Assembly: GCF_024298765.1 (NCBI RefSeq)
Contig: NZ_CP101210.1
DNA length: 64,000 bases
From: Escherichia coli
GTDB lineage: Bacteria; Pseudomonadota; Gammaproteobacteria; Enterobacterales; Enterobacteriaceae
Reading direction: 5' to 3' (one strand)
Of this stretch, positions 490 through 8,994 are shown piece after piece (position 1 is the first letter of the stretch; each line of letters starts with the position of its first letter). The notes beneath the pieces were generated by a model that searched no databases, was not told the DNA's origin, and saw only the letters and a list, made by a program, of their open reading frames with translations. A program made the translations under genes and the position numbers.

Positions 490-1755
490 TTACTGTTTTA
501 ATGGATTATTAATCTTTGCATATTCAAATGGACTGATAAATTTTTCTCTGTTTGCATCCAGAAAATCGGCCCACCATTGTAGCATCAAGCGGCGTTCTTC
601 CAGATGCTCTGCTTTATGGATATACGCGGCCCTCACTGAATTTCGCTCCATGTGGCTCATCTGACGTTCAACAGCATCACGAGACCACAAACCTGATTCG
701 ACCAATGAACTACAGGCCATTGTTCGAAAGCCATGACCACAAACCTCTACTTTTGTATCATACCCCATGACCCGTAACGCACTATTTACCGTATTCTCAC
801 TCATGGGTTTGTGCGAATCGTGATCACCAATAAATATCAAGTCATGGGCCCCACAAAACTGTTTTATCTGCTTTAAAATTGCAAGAGCTTGCGTTGAAAG
901 AGGCACTAGATGCGTTGTACGCATTTTTGAGCCTCTATGGGAATGTTTCACTCCAGGAATAGGCTCCCGCTCCGGTGGGATAGTCCATATAGACGCTTCG
1001 AAATCGATCTCTGACCAACGAGCAAAACGCAGCTCACTGGACCGAATAAAGATCAGCAAAGAGAGTTCTGTCGCCCATCGGGTTAGCGGCCTACCAGTAT
1101 AGCTATCTATTTTTGTAAGCAACTCAGGGATGCGCTTTAATTCAAGCGCGGGACGATGTTGTCGATTACAGGAAGCAACCGCCCCAGCCATCTCTTGTGC
1201 CGGGTTATAATCAATTAACCCACTTTGCACTGCATAGCGCATGATGGCTGTAGTGCGCTGCTGAAGACGAGCGGCCACTTCAAGACGTCCAGACATTTCT
1301 ACGGCCTTAATGGGTGCTAATAAATCTCGAGTTTTTAACTCAGCGATATTACGTTCACCAAGCGCTGCAAAAAGATTATCTTCCAGACTTTTTAGCACAC
1401 GATGGGCGTGATCTTCAGACCACTTTTTATTGGTGCCATGCCACTCAATCGCGACTTCTTTAAAGGTTCGTGCTTTACTCTGTTCAACCTTATCATTTTT
1501 CTTTTTGTCTCCCGGATCGACGCCATTCGCAAGCAGCTTACGCGCCTCGTCACGACGTACTCTGGCATCCGCTAGTGTGATTTCAGGATAAACCCCAAGT
1601 GCCAGCATTTTTTGCTTTCCCTCATAACGGTACTGCAAACGCCAGTACTTAGAACCATTTGGATGGACAAGCAGATGCATACCGCCACCATCAGTCAGCT
1701 TATATTGCTTATCCGTTGGCTTGGCTGCTCTGACTTTGATATCTGTTAATGCCAT
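490..1755 (-). CDS. P4-family tyrosine integrase (site-specific recombinase) adjacent to tRNA-Leu
   Basis: 421-aa ORF with ATG start; N-terminal MALTDIKVRAAKPT...WRLQYRYEGK and C-terminal integrase-like region are typical of P4-type integrases; lies directly downstream of the leuX 3' end on the same strand. Confidence 0.88.
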   Translation of the reverse strand: MALTDIKVRAAKPTDKQYKLTDGGGMHLLVHPNGSKYWRLQYRYEGKQKMLALGVYPEITLADARVRRDEARKLLANGVDPGDKKKNDKVEQSKARTFKEVAIEWHGTNKKWSEDHAHRVLKSLEDNLFAALGERNIAELKTRDLLAPIKAVEMSGRLEVAARLQQRTTAIMRYAVQSGLIDYNPAQEMAGAVASCNRQHRPALELKRIPELLTKIDSYTGRPLTRWATELSLLIFIRSSELRFARWSEIDFEASIWTIPPEREPIPGVKHSHRGSKMRTTHLVPLSTQALAILKQIKQFCGAHDLIFIGDHDSHKPMSENTVNSALRVMGYDTKVEVCGHGFRTMACSSLVESGLWSRDAVERQMSHMERNSVRAAYIHKAEHLEERRLMLQWWADFLDANREKFISPFEYAKINNPLKQ

Positions 1756-1941: not shown

Positions 1942-2026
1942 TGGTGCCGAAGGCCGGACTCGAACCGGCACGTATTTCTACGGTTGATTTTGAATCAACT
2001 GCGTCTACCGATTTCGCCACTTCGGC
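1942..2026 (-). tRNA. leuX: tRNA-Leu (anticodon CAA)
   Basis: Reverse complement reads GCCGAAGTGGCGAAATCGGTAGACGCAGTTGATTCAAAATCAACCGTAGAAATACGTGCCGGTTCGAGTCCGGCCTTCGGCACCA; cloverleaf with CAA anticodon and 3' CCA. Confidence 0.95.
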
Positions 2027-2221: not shown

Positions 2222-3241
2222 ATGTCGATGATAAAAAGCTATGCCGCAAAAGAAGCGGGCGGCGAACTGGAAGTTTATGAGTACGATCCCGGTGAGCTGA
2301 AGCCACAAGATGTTGAAGTGCAGGTGGATTACTGCGGGATTTGTCATTCCGATCTGTCGATGATCGATAACGAATGGGGATTTTCACAATATCCACTGGT
2401 TGCCGGGCATGAGGTGATTGGTCGCGTGGTGGCGCTCGGGAGTGCCGCACAGGATAAAGGTTTGCAGGTCGGTCAGCGTGTCGGGATTGGCTGGACGGCA
2501 CGCAGCTGCGGGCATTGCGATGCCTGTATTAGCGGTAATCAGATCAACTGCGAGCAAGGTGCGGTGCCGACGATTATGAATCGCGGTGGCTTTGCCGAGA
2601 AGTTGCGTGCGGACTGGCAATGGGTGATTCCACTGCCAGAAAATATCGACATTGAATCTGCCGGACCGCTGTTGTGCGGCGGTATCACGGTCTTTAAACC
2701 GCTGTTGATGCACCATATCACTGCCACCAGCCGCGTTGGGGTAATTGGTATTGGCGGGCTGGGGCATATCGCTATAAAACTTCTGCACGCAATGGGATGC
2801 GAGGTGACAGCCTTTAGTTCTAATCCAGCGAAAGAGCAAGAAGTGCTGGCGATGGGTGCCGATAAAGTGGTGAATAGCCGCGATCCACAGGCACTGAAAG
2901 CACTGGCGGGGCAGTTTGATCTCATTATCAACACCGTCAACGTCAGCCTCGACTGGCAGCCTTATTTTGAGGCGCTGACGTATGGCGGTAATTTCCATAC
3001 GGTCGGTGCAGTTCTCACGCCCTTGCCGGTTCCGGCCTTTACGCTGATTGCGGGCGACCGCAGCGTCTCTGGCTCTGCTACTGGCACGCCTTATGAGTTG
3101 CGTAAGCTGATGCGCTTTGCCGCCCGCAGCAAGGTTGCGCCGACCACCGAACTGTTCCCGATGTCGAAAATTAACGACGCCATCCAGCATGTGCGGGATG
3201 GTAAGGCGCGTTATCGCGTGGTTCTGAAAGCCGACTTCTGA
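2222..3241 (+). CDS. ahr: Zn-dependent NADPH aldehyde reductase / alcohol dehydrogenase
   Basis: [26 protein letters not shown]...[10 protein letters not shown] zinc-ADH motif; 339 aa from the internal Met of ORF 2180..3241; synteny next to leuX. Confidence 0.92.
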
Positions 3242-3370
3242 TCCCTTTGCCGGGTGCCTGTCGCCCGGCACTTAAATCTCTTTGGAAGGCGTCTCGCAAT
3301 CTGCTGAATTTAGCGGTGAAGAGTGCGCAGCCGTTGCCTATACTCCAGGCAGGAAACTGGAGGAAATCTC

Positions 3371-4873
3371 ATGAGCGAACCCCTGTTAATTGCCCGCACG
3401 CCGGACACAGAACTTTTTTTACTGCCGGGAATGGCTAACCGTCACGGGCTGATTACTGGCGCAACGGGGACGGGTAAAACCGTTACGCTGCAAAAACTGG
3501 CAGAGTCTCTATCTGAAATCGGCGTGCCGGTGTTTATGGCCGATGTGAAAGGTGATTTAACGGGAGTAGCGGAGGAAGGTACTTCTTCGGAAAAACTGCT
3601 CGCAAGGCTTAAAAATATCGGCGTAAATGACTGGCAACCTCATGCTAATCCGGTGGTGGTGTGGGATATCTTTGGCGAGAAAGGCCATCCGGTGCGGGCG
3701 ACGGTTTCGGATCTTGGGCCGCTGTTGCTGGCACGACTGTTGAATCTCAACGATGTGCAATCTGGCGTGCTGAATATCATTTTCCGCATTGCTGACGATC
3801 AGGGATTGTTGCTGCTCGACTTTAAAGATTTGCGGGCGATTACCCAGTACATCGGCGATAACGCCAAATCCTTCCAGAATCAGTACGGAAATATCAGTAG
3901 CGCATCGGTTGGTGCCATCCAGCGCGGATTACTGTCGCTGGAACAGCAAGGCGCAGCACACTTCTTTGGTGAGCCGATGCTGGATATCAAAGACTGGATG
4001 CGCACCGATGCCAACGGTAAAGGCGTTATCAATATCCTCAGCGCCGAGAAACTTTATCAGATGCCGAAACTGTACGCCGCCAGCCTGCTGTGGATGCTTT
4101 CAGAGTTATATGAACAATTGCCTGAAGCGGGCGATCTGGAGAAACCAAAACTGGTGTTTTTCTTCGACGAAGCACATCTGCTGTTTAACGATGCACCGCA
4201 GGTACTGCTGGATAAGATTGAGCAGGTGATAAGGCTTATCCGCTCGAAAGGCGTGGGCGTCTGGTTCGTTTCGCAAAACCCGTCAGATATTCCGGATAAC
4301 GTGCTCGGGCAGCTCGGTAATCGCGTTCAACACGCTTTGCGGGCTTTTACGCCCAAAGATCAGAAAGCAGTAAAAGCTGCGGCGCAAACCATGCGGGCCA
4401 ATCCGGCGTTTGATACCGAAAAGGCAATCCAGGAACTGGGGATCGGCGAGGCGTTAATCTCGTTTCTCGATGCGAAAGGAAGCCCTTCAGTGGTGGAACG
4501 GGCGATGGTGATTGCCCCCTGTTCACGAATGGGGCCGGTGACGGAAGATGAGCGTAATGGCTTGATTAATCACTCCCCGGTGTATGGCAAGTACGAGGAT
4601 GACGTGGATCGGGAATCCGCCTATGAGATGTTGCAAAAAGGCTTTCAGGCCAGTACCGAGCAGCAAAATAATCCTCCCGCGAAAGGGAAAGAGGTGGCGG
4701 TGGATGACGGTATTCTTGGTGGATTGAAGGATATTTTGTTTGGCACTACCGGACCACGCGGCGGGAAGAAAGATGGTGTGGTGCAAACAATGGCGAAAAG
4801 CGCCGCCCGCCAGGTGACGAATCAGATTGTGCGTGGGATGTTGGGGAGTTTGCTGGGGGGGAGAAAAAGGTAA
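3371..4873 (+). CDS. yjgR: HerA-like P-loop ATPase, DUF853 family
   Basis: [37 protein letters not shown]alker A motif; 500 aa from the internal Met of ORF 3323..4873. Confidence 0.88.
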
Positions 4874-5033
4874 GTCAGGTGCGATTTGTCTTTGCCTGAT
4901 GCGACGCTGGCGCGCTTTATCATGCCTAAACTACTGCAATATATTGAATTTTCATGATTTTTCAGGCATGAACGAAGCACACTTTGCTAACAATAATAAA
5001 GGGAGCTTTCGCTCCCTTTATTCGTTCATCAGG

Positions 5034-6116
5034 TTACGATTTTCTCATTAACAGCCACAGGCTGATTAAGAAGAAGCTGGCGCTTGGCAGCAACGCGCCG
5101 ATAATCGGCGGGATGCCGTAAACCAATGTCAGCGGGCCGAAGATCTGGTCCAGTACGTAGAAGACAAAACCGAAGCTGATACCGGTGACCACACGCACGC
5201 CCATCGGTACGCTACGCAGTGGGCCAAAGATAAACGACAGCGCCATCAGCATCATCACCGCCACGGATAGAGGCTGGAAGATTTTGCTCCACATGTTGAG
5301 TTGATAACGTCCGGCATCCTGACCGCTCGACTTTAGATACTTCACATAGTTGTGCAAACCACTGATGGAGAGTGCATCCGGGTCCAGCGCCACCACGCCC
5401 AGTTTGTCTGGCGTGAGGTTGGTTTTCCAGGTGCCGCTCACCGTCTGCGAACCGGTGATCTGTTTCGGATTGGTCAGATCAGATTCATCAACCTGCGACA
5501 GACGCCAGACTTTATGTTCCGGGTCAAACTTCGCGGTAGCGGCATAGCGTACGGATTGCAGACGACGATTCTCGTTAAAGGCATAAATACTGATGCCACC
5601 TAACTCTTCGTCACCTTTAACCCGCTCAATGTAGACGAAGTTGTTGCCATCTTTCGCCCATAAGCCTTGCTGAGTGGAGAGTAACGAGCCGCCGTACATC
5701 GCCTGGGCACGGTAGTTACGCGCCATCTGCTCGCCCTGCGGCGCGACCCATTCACCAATCGCCATCGTCAGTAAGACCAGCGGAATGGCGGTTTTCATCA
5801 CCGACAGCGCCACCTGCATACGGGTAAAACCAGAAGCCTGCATCACCACCAGTTCGCTGCGCTGCGCCAGCATCCCAAGACCAAGCAACGCCCCAAGCAG
5901 AGCCGCCATCGGGAAGAAGATCTGCACATCTTTCGGCACGCTCAGCAAGGTATACATTCCTGCGCCTAACGCGTCGTAACTCCCCTGCCCGGCTTTTTTC
6001 AGCTGATCGACAAATTTGATAATGCCCGACAGCGACACCAGCATGAACAGCGTCATCATGATGGTGGTAAAAATAGTTTTACCGATATAGCGGTCAAGTA
6101 CGCCAAAAGGTTGCAT
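5034..6116 (-). CDS. lptG: LPS export ABC permease LptG
   Basis: MQPFGVLDRYIGKTIFTTIMMTLFMLVSL...; 360 aa; overlaps the lptF stop. Confidence 0.93.
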   Translation of the reverse strand: MQPFGVLDRYIGKTIFTTIMMTLFMLVSLSGIIKFVDQLKKAGQGSYDALGAGMYTLLSVPKDVQIFFPMAALLGALLGLGMLAQRSELVVMQASGFTRMQVALSVMKTAIPLVLLTMAIGEWVAPQGEQMARNYRAQAMYGGSLLSTQQGLWAKDGNNFVYIERVKGDEELGGISIYAFNENRRLQSVRYAATAKFDPEHKVWRLSQVDESDLTNPKQITGSQTVSGTWKTNLTPDKLGVVALDPDALSISGLHNYVKYLKSSGQDAGRYQLNMWSKIFQPLSVAVMMLMALSFIFGPLRSVPMGVRVVTGISFGFVFYVLDQIFGPLTLVYGIPPIIGALLPSASFFLISLWLLMRKS

Positions 6117-7216
6117 CACACCGCTCCTTTACGCGAAAAACTGGCACGCAGGCGGCGGACCGGCACGGTGTCCCAAAGGTTGAGAACAATCGCCAAAGCC
6201 AGATAAATCAGGTTAACGGTCCACATCCACAGTGTCGGGTCCAGCTTACCTTTACCGCCGTTCGATTTCAGGGAGGTCTGGATCAGGAAGAAAAGTAGAT
6301 ACAGCAGCATGGCTGGCAGCATCGACAGTACGCGTCCCTGACGTGGGTTAACCACGCTCAGCGGTACGACCATAAGTGCCATCATAAACACGGTGAATAC
6401 CAACGTGATACGCCAGTTCAGTTCTGCGCGAGCACGATCGGTGTCAGTGTTCCACAATGTGCGCATGTCCATCTGGTCGGTATCGTTCGGGTCGAGCGCC
6501 ACCGCCTGGTGACCAATGATCGCCTGATAATCCTGGAAGTCCGTAATGCGGAAATCGCGTAACAGTGCAGTGCCTTCGAAGCGCGTTCCCTGGTTGAGAG
6601 TGACGACCTGGGAGCCGTCGCGCAGCTGGGTTAAATGTCCGGAATCGGCCACCACCACAGAAGGACGTGCATTACCTTTTGGTCGAATTTGTGCGAGGAA
6701 CACATCTTTGAAATCGCTGCCGTCAACGCTTTCGATGAACAGCACCGAGCTGCCATTAGTCGCTTGCTGGAATTGCCCTTGCGCCAGCGCCGCCATGCCA
6801 GGGTTCGCTTTCGCTTCTGCTAACACTTCATCCTGATGACGCGATGACCACGGTCCCGCCCACATCACGTTAACCGCCGCGACGATTGCCGTGAATACCG
6901 CAAGGATCATTGCCGCTTTCACCAGAACCGCTTTGCTCAGGCCGCAGGCATGCATTACCGTAATTTCACTTTCGGTATACAGTTTGCCCAGCGTCATCAG
7001 CAGCCCGAGGAACAGGCTTAATGGCAGGATAAGCTGCGCCATTTCCGGCACGCCCAACCCGAGAAGGGAGAGCACCAGATTCGCCGGAATATCGCCGTCA
7101 ACCGCTGCGCCGAGGATCCTCACTAACTTTTGACAGAAGAAGATCAAAAGCAAGATGAAGAGTATCGCCAGCTGGCTTTTGAGCGTCTCCCGCACCAGAT
7201 ATCTTATGATTATCAC
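6116..7216 (-). CDS. lptF: LPS export ABC permease LptF
   Basis: MIIIRYLVRETLKSQLAILFILLLIFF...; 366 aa with GTG start; divergent from pepA. Confidence 0.93.
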   Translation of the reverse strand: MIIIRYLVRETLKSQLAILFILLLIFFCQKLVRILGAAVDGDIPANLVLSLLGLGVPEMAQLILPLSLFLGLLMTLGKLYTESEITVMHACGLSKAVLVKAAMILAVFTAIVAAVNVMWAGPWSSRHQDEVLAEAKANPGMAALAQGQFQQATNGSSVLFIESVDGSDFKDVFLAQIRPKGNARPSVVVADSGHLTQLRDGSQVVTLNQGTRFEGTALLRDFRITDFQDYQAIIGHQAVALDPNDTDQMDMRTLWNTDTDRARAELNWRITLVFTVFMMALMVVPLSVVNPRQGRVLSMLPAMLLYLLFFLIQTSLKSNGGKGKLDPTLWMWTVNLIYLALAIVLNLWDTVPVRRLRASFSRKGAV

Positions 7217-7479
7217 TTTAAATACGCCCGTAAAAACTCGTCTTTTGCAGGATTTTAGCTTGTTTCATGGCTTAAACGTCATTTATTCTCTTGAGTCGTC
7301 GAAATCGTCGCTAAGATAATTATACTCAACGGATTCACCTCTCAGATTTTGTTCTGACGTGCCAATGCCGTAATAACGTTAAGATTAACACGAAGTCATC
7401 GCAACAGCGGACATGAGTTACGAAAGCTTGCAATTCTATCTGTAGCCACCGCCGTTGTCTTTAAGATTCAGGAGCGTAG

Positions 7480-8994
<1,515 letters not shown>

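Follow-up and report, generated by a model that had tools for sequence, protein, structure and literature searches.

YjgR of Escherichia coli, a conserved single-gene ATPase of the FtsK-HerA superfamily with a putative membrane-tethering tail

The gene yjgR lies in a 64,000-nucleotide stretch of Escherichia coli DNA (contig NZ_CP101210.1 of RefSeq assembly GCF_024298765.1; the whole stretch is hereafter called the window) and encodes a protein of 500 residues. We read this protein as a membrane-tethered ring ATPase translocase with a housekeeping or stress-phase role, probably induced in stationary phase and with DNA as the most likely substrate, a composite to which we would give an even chance. 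Its components differ in strength: that YjgR is an active ring ATPase appears very probable, and we are highly confident that it is not a defence system. The gene itself is an ordinary, already catalogued member of a known family with a deposited structure. It belongs to the E. coli "y-ome", i.e., the genes without an assigned function, and encodes a universally conserved, strongly constrained motor. Our literature search found no paper giving YjgR a function, in agreement with an earlier note on this DNA, made from the sequence alone, which had left the role unassigned.

That the gene is the known yjgR, of family PF05872 (HerA_C, formerly DUF853), is virtually certain. With the Pfam profile, whose cut-off is 22 bits, its product reaches 842.6 bits (E 1.3e-253), which is far above chance, and residues 5 to 500 align to positions 3 to 502 of the 502-position profile. 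The RefSeq annotation has the same coordinates (6372-7874 of the matching record, equal to 3371-4873 of the window); in K-12 the product is named "DUF853 domain-containing protein YjgR", and other E. coli genomes likewise annotate the gene. The reading frame runs from the ATG at 3371 to the TAA at 4871-4873, and in an alignment 31 diverse homologues have their N-termini at the methionine encoded by this ATG. An in-frame GTG at 3323, giving a product of 516 aa, was considered as the start and rejected; RefSeq picks the ATG. The 500-aa open reading frame (ORF) and the Walker A motif GATGTGKT reported in the earlier note are thus exact, and its assignment of the protein to the HerA/FtsK-type ATPases and to DUF853 is borne out by the full-length Pfam match and by fold and sequence-profile searches, which place YjgR in the FtsK-HerA superfamily. 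That note did not contain the missing HAS barrel, the conserved C-terminal tail or the structure in Protein Data Bank (PDB) entry 11kk, all described below.

YjgR carries the full catalytic set of its superfamily. As judged from an alignment of 32 diverse homologues (alignment A1), this set comprises K36 in the P-loop, the acidic pair D266/E267 of Walker B, R288/R291 and Q302, with D266, E267, R288, R291 and Q302 all at least 90% conserved. An arginine finger and a sensor glutamine are typical of the FtsK-HerA superfamily, and by analogy R288 or R291 is a candidate arginine finger and Q302 a candidate sensor glutamine. The same alignment contains three conserved motifs that are specific to the family, namely NRHG (residues 23 to 26), DxKGD (58 to 62) and QHALRA (320 to 325). 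Between Walker A and Walker B, the AlphaFold2 (AF2) model shows a mostly helical insert of ~140 residues, the helices of which (residues 112-123, 128-143, 151-163, 165-172, 177-192 and 232-249) have predicted local distance difference test (pLDDT) values above 94. In position, this insert matches the helix bundle of HerA and the all-alpha insert of TrwB, to which it may be equivalent. The helix-bundle domain of T. kodakarensis HerA touches double-stranded DNA (dsDNA) (PMC12977600); sequence alignments with YjgR span the Walker B-to-sensor region only and gave no mapping of its DNA-contacting residues onto YjgR.

Fold comparison against a structural library that ended on 2026-04-08 gave S. solfataricus HerA as the top relative (27.8), followed by the C-domain of DptH/DndH (26.8), VirB4 (25.7), D. 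radiodurans HerA (22.9), HerA-DUF4297 (21.0), TrwB (20.6) and FtsK (14.9). The results of Foldseek and of a PDB search by sequence profile were concordant, and YjgR thus belongs to the HerA/VirB4 branch of the FtsK-HerA superfamily. Like HerA, the protein has the RecA-like core of FtsK-HerA type with a helical insert.

Within this branch, YjgR nevertheless differs from the HerA of HerA-NurA systems (S. solfataricus, PDB 4d2i; D. radiodurans, 7f6d/7wrw; T. kodakarensis, 9x1l), with which it shares 14-19% identity. In contrast to these proteins, it has no HAS barrel and neither NurA nor Mre11/Rad50 as neighbours, and it carries an extra linker and a conserved C-terminal tail. No HAS-barrel family occurs among the Pfam matches of YjgR at E values up to 0.1, and in the AF2 model the P-loop, which already begins at residue 30, is preceded by just a short beta-hairpin (strands 5-9 and 14-17). 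YjgR is therefore not a canonical HerA. The NCBIfam HerA equivalogs score it at 37.9 bits (NF040937, cut-off 800) and 27.6 bits (NF040819, cut-off 970). In HerA-NurA, the HAS domain provides the NurA-binding surface (PMC12977600), and the missing barrel fits the missing partner gene.

FtsK and SpoIIIE are typified by a PF01580 match above cut-off, an N-terminal membrane domain and a C-terminal gamma domain, a combination that YjgR does not show. As compared to the type IV secretion system (T4SS) ATPases VirB4/TrwK and the coupling proteins TrwB/VirD4/DotL, YjgR lacks both nearby T4SS genes and N-terminal transmembrane (TM) helices; its Pfam TrwB_AAD_bind match covers only 45 residues around the P-loop, and the T4SS gene context combined with a family-level hidden Markov model match that marks such ATPases is not found.

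PDB entry 11kk, "HerA like helicase YjgR", holds six identical chains of 503 residues that are ~99% identical to the product of the window gene, which is consistent with a hexamer. The entry is not in the fold library used here and thus appears very recent; we found no paper for it. Binding of ATP at the P-loop of YjgR has been shown, with ATP stabilizing peptides in or next to the P-loop in an HT-PELSA preprint (10.1101/2025.04.28.650974). An experimental-evolution study associated loss-of-function mutations in yjgR with larger colonies. M. tuberculosis Rv2510c, which we take to be a YjgR homologue, appears in an ATP-probe proteome. A review classes cyanobacterial 'FtsK' proteins as members of the YjgR family; for the Anabaena protein, an interaction with ZipN of the divisome is reported (PMC7766704). 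A 'YjgR' domain said to co-occur with the UG12 reverse transcriptase (PMC8934634) is likely a generic COG label, and we did not use it as evidence on the YjgR family.

The putative tail-anchor architecture of YjgR is the only lead that we consider worth carrying forward. Past about residue 430 of the AF2 model, the pLDDT sinks from 87 to below 50, and homologues have tails of anywhere between 14 and 283 residues when counted from core position 420, with a composition rich in K, E, A and Q. This linker leads into a conserved tail peptide of 25-30 residues with the consensus S-x-G-R-x-x-G-R-x-x-x-R-G-[ILV]-[LF]-G-[ST]-L-[KR]-[KR], of which the E. coli protein bears the core motif at its very C-terminus. 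A1 shows no variation at R488 and almost none at G492. The strict tail motif is present in 102 of 162 full-core homologues, and most of the others have obvious variants of it. The last 30 residues of homologues have a median net charge of +5, and the hydrophobic moment of the tail is 0.35 as compared to 0.19 in control windows. A HeliQuest-type D value above 1.34 was obtained for 79% of the tails but for only 4% of control segments taken from the core (family median, 1.67; control segments, 0.58; E. coli YjgR, 1.64), next to 1.05 for MinD and 1.57 for FtsA. These sequence properties would fit a C-terminal amphipathic membrane-targeting helix of MinD/FtsA type, with the helix itself (residues 470-496) being predicted at low confidence by AF2.

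A TM-like hydrophobic segment takes the place of the tail motif in 9 of the 162 full-core homologues, TM-like C-termini being seen, for instance, in P0140, P0164, P0222, P0246, P0253, P0259 and P0263; further replacements are a TerD domain in two proteins (P0143, P0153), GYF_2 in one (P0239) and Ltp lipoprotein repeats in one (P0145). With its tail swapped for TerD, GYF_2, Ltp or a hydrophobic anchor, the C-terminus behaves as an exchangeable targeting module. Of the three phage homologues that we inspected (MW677529, MF476925 and MN047793), two have hydrophobic TM-type segments at their C-termini, namely gp71 of Rhodobacter phage RcZahn and a protein of a Klebsiella phage, and gp68 of Xanthomonas phage Xoo-sp13 has an amphipathic tail of the MRGMLG type. 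Among the arguments for a membrane anchor, this recurring exchange of an amphipathic helix for a TM segment carries the most weight, and a tethering function of the YjgR tail is, on balance, slightly favoured. As to the surroundings of the phage genes, RcZahn gp71 lies downstream of genes for a Cas4-like exonuclease and a RuvC-like resolvase and upstream of a ligase gene; the yjgR homologue of Xoo-sp13 adjoins a GTP pyrophosphokinase gene. At the other end of the protein, an N-terminal J-domain suspected in homologue P0131 was not confirmed by Pfam and was dropped.

We propose that six YjgR subunits would assemble into a ring and thread a polymer through its central channel, powered by the hydrolysis of ATP where subunits meet. 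Judging from HerA, DptH, TrwB and FtsK as analogues, the threaded polymer would most likely be dsDNA; DNA as the YjgR substrate is, overall, a tentative assignment that we put somewhat below an even chance. The ring may be held at the inner face of the cytoplasmic membrane by the flexible variable linker and the basic amphipathic C-terminal helix. Such a layout would be FtsK-like but in reversed order, i.e., motor, linker and membrane anchor, and the logic presumably shared with FtsK/SpoIIIE, which belong to the same superfamily, would consist of a hexameric motor, a long variable low-complexity linker and a membrane anchor. The role of YjgR would be housekeeping or stress-related rather than in phage defence. 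A bolder version, which we consider doubtful, holds that the whole family represents an 'inverted FtsK', that is, a tail-anchored ring translocase at the inner membrane which handles DNA at the membrane or septum. If true, its members could pump DNA in E. coli as a back-up or in stationary phase, stand in as the actual FtsK substitute in cyanobacteria and serve as a host-membrane-directed pump in some phages, and an ATPase that is among the most widespread of the uncharacterised ones in bacteria would gain both a function and a cellular address.

The stationary-phase part of our reading derives from the region upstream of the gene and from a published transcriptome. In K-12, a ~5-kb idnR-idnT-idnO-idnD-idnK cluster separates yjgR and ahr; the window lacks this cluster. 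Similarity to K-12 upstream of yjgR begins ~40 bp before the ATG, which locates an insertion/deletion breakpoint at the yjgR promoter (~3325-3332, in the ahr-yjgR spacer 3242-3370). The sigma-S -10 consensus is KCTAYRCTTAA, a C at -13 being the sigma-S-preferred form, and the candidate -10 element CTATACT sits within the sole stretch upstream of yjgR that is common to the window strain and K-12. There is no conserved -35 element upstream of the gene, and a generic sigma-70 promoter scan found no promoter there and did not flag CTATACT. In O157:H7, yjgR goes up by 2.24 log2 units on entry to stationary phase (PMC2241611). Together, the retention of CTATACT across the idn breakpoint and the stationary-phase induction suggest sigma-S control, such that yjgR may be transcribed from a -10-dominated, sigma-S-type promoter mainly at stationary-phase entry. 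Peaks for RpoH and RpoE near yjgR in genomic SELEX (systematic evolution of ligands by exponential enrichment) data are of an unclassified, intragenic type and were not used.

The earlier note had described yjgR as a single gene without an obvious nuclease partner and proposed a survey of its neighbourhood for recurrent partners. In the window, the gene is flanked by ahr and the convergent lptG. For the survey, we took one genome per species and used the profile of alignment A1, which yielded 80 loci; these best genome matches have an identity of 52% or more and come from Beta-, Gamma- and Alphaproteobacteria, Bacteroidales, Acidobacteria, Nitrospirae, Syntrophaceae and one spirochaete, i.e., mostly Proteobacteria and Bacteroidales, with the distant Actinobacteria and cyanobacteria outside the sample. 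Neighbours were defined by a simple, rather crude ORF calling, BLAST clustering and a Pfam scan. The gene is complete at 64 of the 80 loci, and among these we found no recurrent partner, with the top neighbour family occurring within four genes at only 8 loci and the orientation and spacing of flanking genes being near random. The 41 co-directional neighbours at less than 100 bp are unrelated housekeeping genes (M20 peptidase three times, UPRTase and EamA twice each, methyltransferases, a tRNA synthetase and others); Pfam detected no NurA, Sir2, DUF4297 or other nuclease among them. Nor did any repair or recombination gene recur beside bacterial yjgR homologues at the 64 loci. Across these loci, the lack of a nuclease partner is thus the general state and is not confined to E. 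coli.

The suggestion that yjgR belongs to the core rather than the accessory genome proved equally sound. All but two of the 5426 complete E. coli genomes (5424) carry the gene at a coverage of at least 80%, with a median of one copy. Its K-12 counterpart (b4263, UniProt P39342) is the same gene, from which the window allele differs at 80 of 1500 nucleotides and 6 of 500 residues (94.7% nucleotide identity). The synonymous divergence (dS) of 0.24 and the nonsynonymous divergence (dN) of 0.006 give a dN/dS of 0.026, indicating strong purifying selection; yjgR is a vertically conserved core gene, not an accessory one. Beyond E. coli, the YjgR family counts 1,673 clusters at 50% identity (E <=1e-30), or 4,994 clusters at E <=1e-10, and spans several bacterial phyla. 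Homologues are rare on phages (31 of 50,697 records, 24 of the 31 being Rhodobacter phages) and on true plasmids, matches in plasmid records being mostly to megaplasmid- or chromosome-sized replicons.

With respect to its flanks, the downstream neighbour lptG is common to K-12 and the window, whereas the upstream neighbour is the idnR-idnK cluster in K-12 and ahr in the window. The contiguous ahr-yjgR-lptG layout is present in 4913 of the 5426 complete genomes (one match over at least 80% of window positions 3000-5100). Synonymous divergence from K-12 is unusually deep near the ahr-yjgR junction, and across 2222-8994 the nucleotide identity to K-12 amounts to 95.5% for ahr, 94.7% for yjgR, 97.5% for lptG, 99.4% for lptF and 97.6% for pepA. 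An allele at least 99% identical to that of the window was found in only 67 genomes. These data suggest old, recombining allele classes beside the leuX/idn hot spot. The accessory junction that the earlier note had placed next to yjgR is indeed there, as the tRNA-Leu(CAA)/integrase site lies 1.3 kb upstream and the idn breakpoint close to the start codon.

Several points weigh against YjgR being a membrane-tethered DNA translocase under stationary-phase control. Both its membrane location and its action on DNA are predictions from sequence and from analogy with relatives. Relatives such as VirB4 and EssC/EccC have proteins as substrates or partners, which leaves DNA as only one of the plausible substrates. 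The tail has a pLDDT below 50 in the AF2 model and its amphipathicity is moderate (median z of 1.17 versus shuffles, with z >2 in 15% of tails); moreover, it is mainly positive charge that raises the HeliQuest-type score, which is thus compatible with nucleic-acid binding. The invariant arginine and the near-invariant glycine point to a specific contact more than to general binding of lipids. YjgR does not appear in the inner-membrane proteome supplementary tables of PMC4858940, a weak negative because detection may have missed the protein. The sigma-S assignment, for its part, is built on a 7-nt motif and one transcriptome table, and the supplement of a sigma-S chromatin immunoprecipitation sequencing study (PMC4447067) does not mention yjgR, so that sigma-S control stays an inference.

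Part of this evidence could also be read as pointing to a soluble cytoplasmic DNA helicase or translocase in repair or recombination, in which the basic C-terminal helix would bind DNA or gate the protein's own pore. The depositors' naming of 11kk as 'HerA like helicase', the DNA translocases as nearest folds, the strongly basic tail with its invariant arginine, the absence from the inner-membrane supplement and the exonuclease, resolvase and ligase genes around the RcZahn homologue would all agree with such a protein. We nevertheless regard it as unlikely, since the RcZahn protein, the Klebsiella phage homologue and 9 of the 162 bacterial proteins have a TM-type segment in place of the tail, which sits badly with a tail that binds DNA or plugs the pore, and repair or recombination genes do not recur beside the bacterial homologues at the 64 loci. 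Quite improbable is a membrane-associated ATPase that pulls polypeptides, e.g., to pull out or reshape membrane proteins or aggregates in stationary phase in the manner of its VirB4, VirD4 and EssC-type relatives: sequence profile and fold both put dsDNA translocases closest to YjgR, a secretion-system context is lacking, and the neighbours are too heterogeneous to inform (M20 peptidase in 3 of 41).

HerA-family ATPases are common in anti-phage systems. The known anti-phage HerA types (Sir2-HerA/Nezha, HerA-DUF4297, DptH of Dnd, TdpA and mad8 of MADS) consist of several genes or of fusions and lie in variable islands; in contrast, YjgR is encoded by a single core gene with no adjacent effector and falls far under the curated cut-offs, scoring 16.5-17.6 bits with the NCBIfam HerA_antiphage models (cut-offs 800-850). 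PADLOC gave weak matches of partial coverage, i.e., mad8 at 67 bits (E 4e-19) and HerA models at up to 47 bits (E 1e-13). A defence-type HerA sensor or motor with its effector encoded elsewhere, or acting with the leuX island, could invoke these matches and the 1.3-kb distance to a tRNA-Leu integration site that bears BREX in a strain identical over 3000-5100, but is very improbable given the single copy in nearly all E. coli genomes regardless of island content, the vertical conservation at low dN/dS, the scores far below the anti-phage cut-offs, the lack of the HAS barrel that docks the partner in HerA-NurA, the lack of an effector gene recurring in 64 loci and the rarity of homologues on plasmids. 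Three points can be taken as settled, namely that yjgR is no defence system, that it stands without a partner gene and that its product is devoid of the HAS barrel used for partner docking, and they remove "HerA helicase / defence" as the most tempting mis-annotation of a protein that we prefer to read as a membrane-tethered housekeeping or stress-phase translocase.

Table 1. Features of yjgR and its surroundings in the window (A1, alignment of 32 diverse homologues)
Feature	Position in window	Strand	Remarks
yjgR coding sequence	3371..4873	+	500 codons plus TAA; ORF list, Pfam, RefSeq annotation
Shine-Dalgarno GGAGG	3359..3363	+	7 nt before yjgR ATG
Candidate -10 element CTATACT (TATACT, C at -13)	3338..3344	+	read from sequence; putative sigma-S-preferred type
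Walker A / P-loop GATGTGKT, aa 30-37	3458..3481	+	G30 and K36 invariant (A1)
Mostly helical insert, ~aa 112-250 (~140 residues)	3704..4120	+	between Walker A and Walker B; AF2 model
Walker B VFFFDE, aa 262-267	4154..4171	+	D266 and E267 nearly invariant (A1)
Motifs VRLIRSKG + FVSQNP, aa 288-303	4232..4279	+	R288, R291 and Q302 >=90% conserved (A1)
Variable low-complexity linker, ~aa 434-465	4670..4765	+	pLDDT drop, length variation
Conserved basic amphipathic C-terminal helix (predicted), aa 466-500	4766..4870	+	motif GRxxxRGxLGxLKK; proposed membrane tether
Hairpin between convergent yjgR and lptG	4995..5022	.	12-bp stem, dG -17.5 kcal/mol, z = -6.0 vs shuffles
P4-type tyrosine integrase	490-1755	-	beside leuX
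tRNA-Leu(CAA) leuX	1942-2026	-	integration site ~1.3 kb upstream of yjgR

The gene order in this part of the window is P4-type integrase, tRNA-Leu(CAA), ahr, yjgR, the convergent lptG-lptF, pepA, holC and valS. The island at leuX/integrase continues past the left window edge; in the strain identical over 3000-5100, which is 2014C-3338, the BREX locus of the leuX island includes brxC, DUF1788 and DUF1819. The hairpin between yjgR and lptG has the sequence AAUAAAGGGAGC-UUUC-GCUCCCUUUAUU with U-rich flanks on both strands and is probably a bidirectional intrinsic terminator. Before it, at 4894-4928 of the same intergenic region, lies the palindrome GCCTGATGCGACGCTGGCGCGCTTTATCATGCCTA, which from its likeness to the repetitive extragenic palindromic (REP) consensus is a putative REP-like element. 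Among the homologues collected, protein P0251 (237 aa) consists of the Ahr N-terminus joined to YjgR residues 332-500, an ahr-yjgR 3' fusion that points to a deletion or misassembly in some public assembly.

Further downstream, the Rfam family Ysr276, a Yersinia antisense small RNA, matches at 8041-8235 on the minus strand, antisense within pepA, with 185.8 bits as compared to a gathering score of 100. The G+C content falls to 0.34-0.39 at 12500-14000, directly after valS; the segment 12400-20400 is ordinary E. coli sequence (yjgN, yjgL, argF, bdcA, bdcR and others) that is present at a coverage of at least 80% in 4127 of the 5426 genomes.

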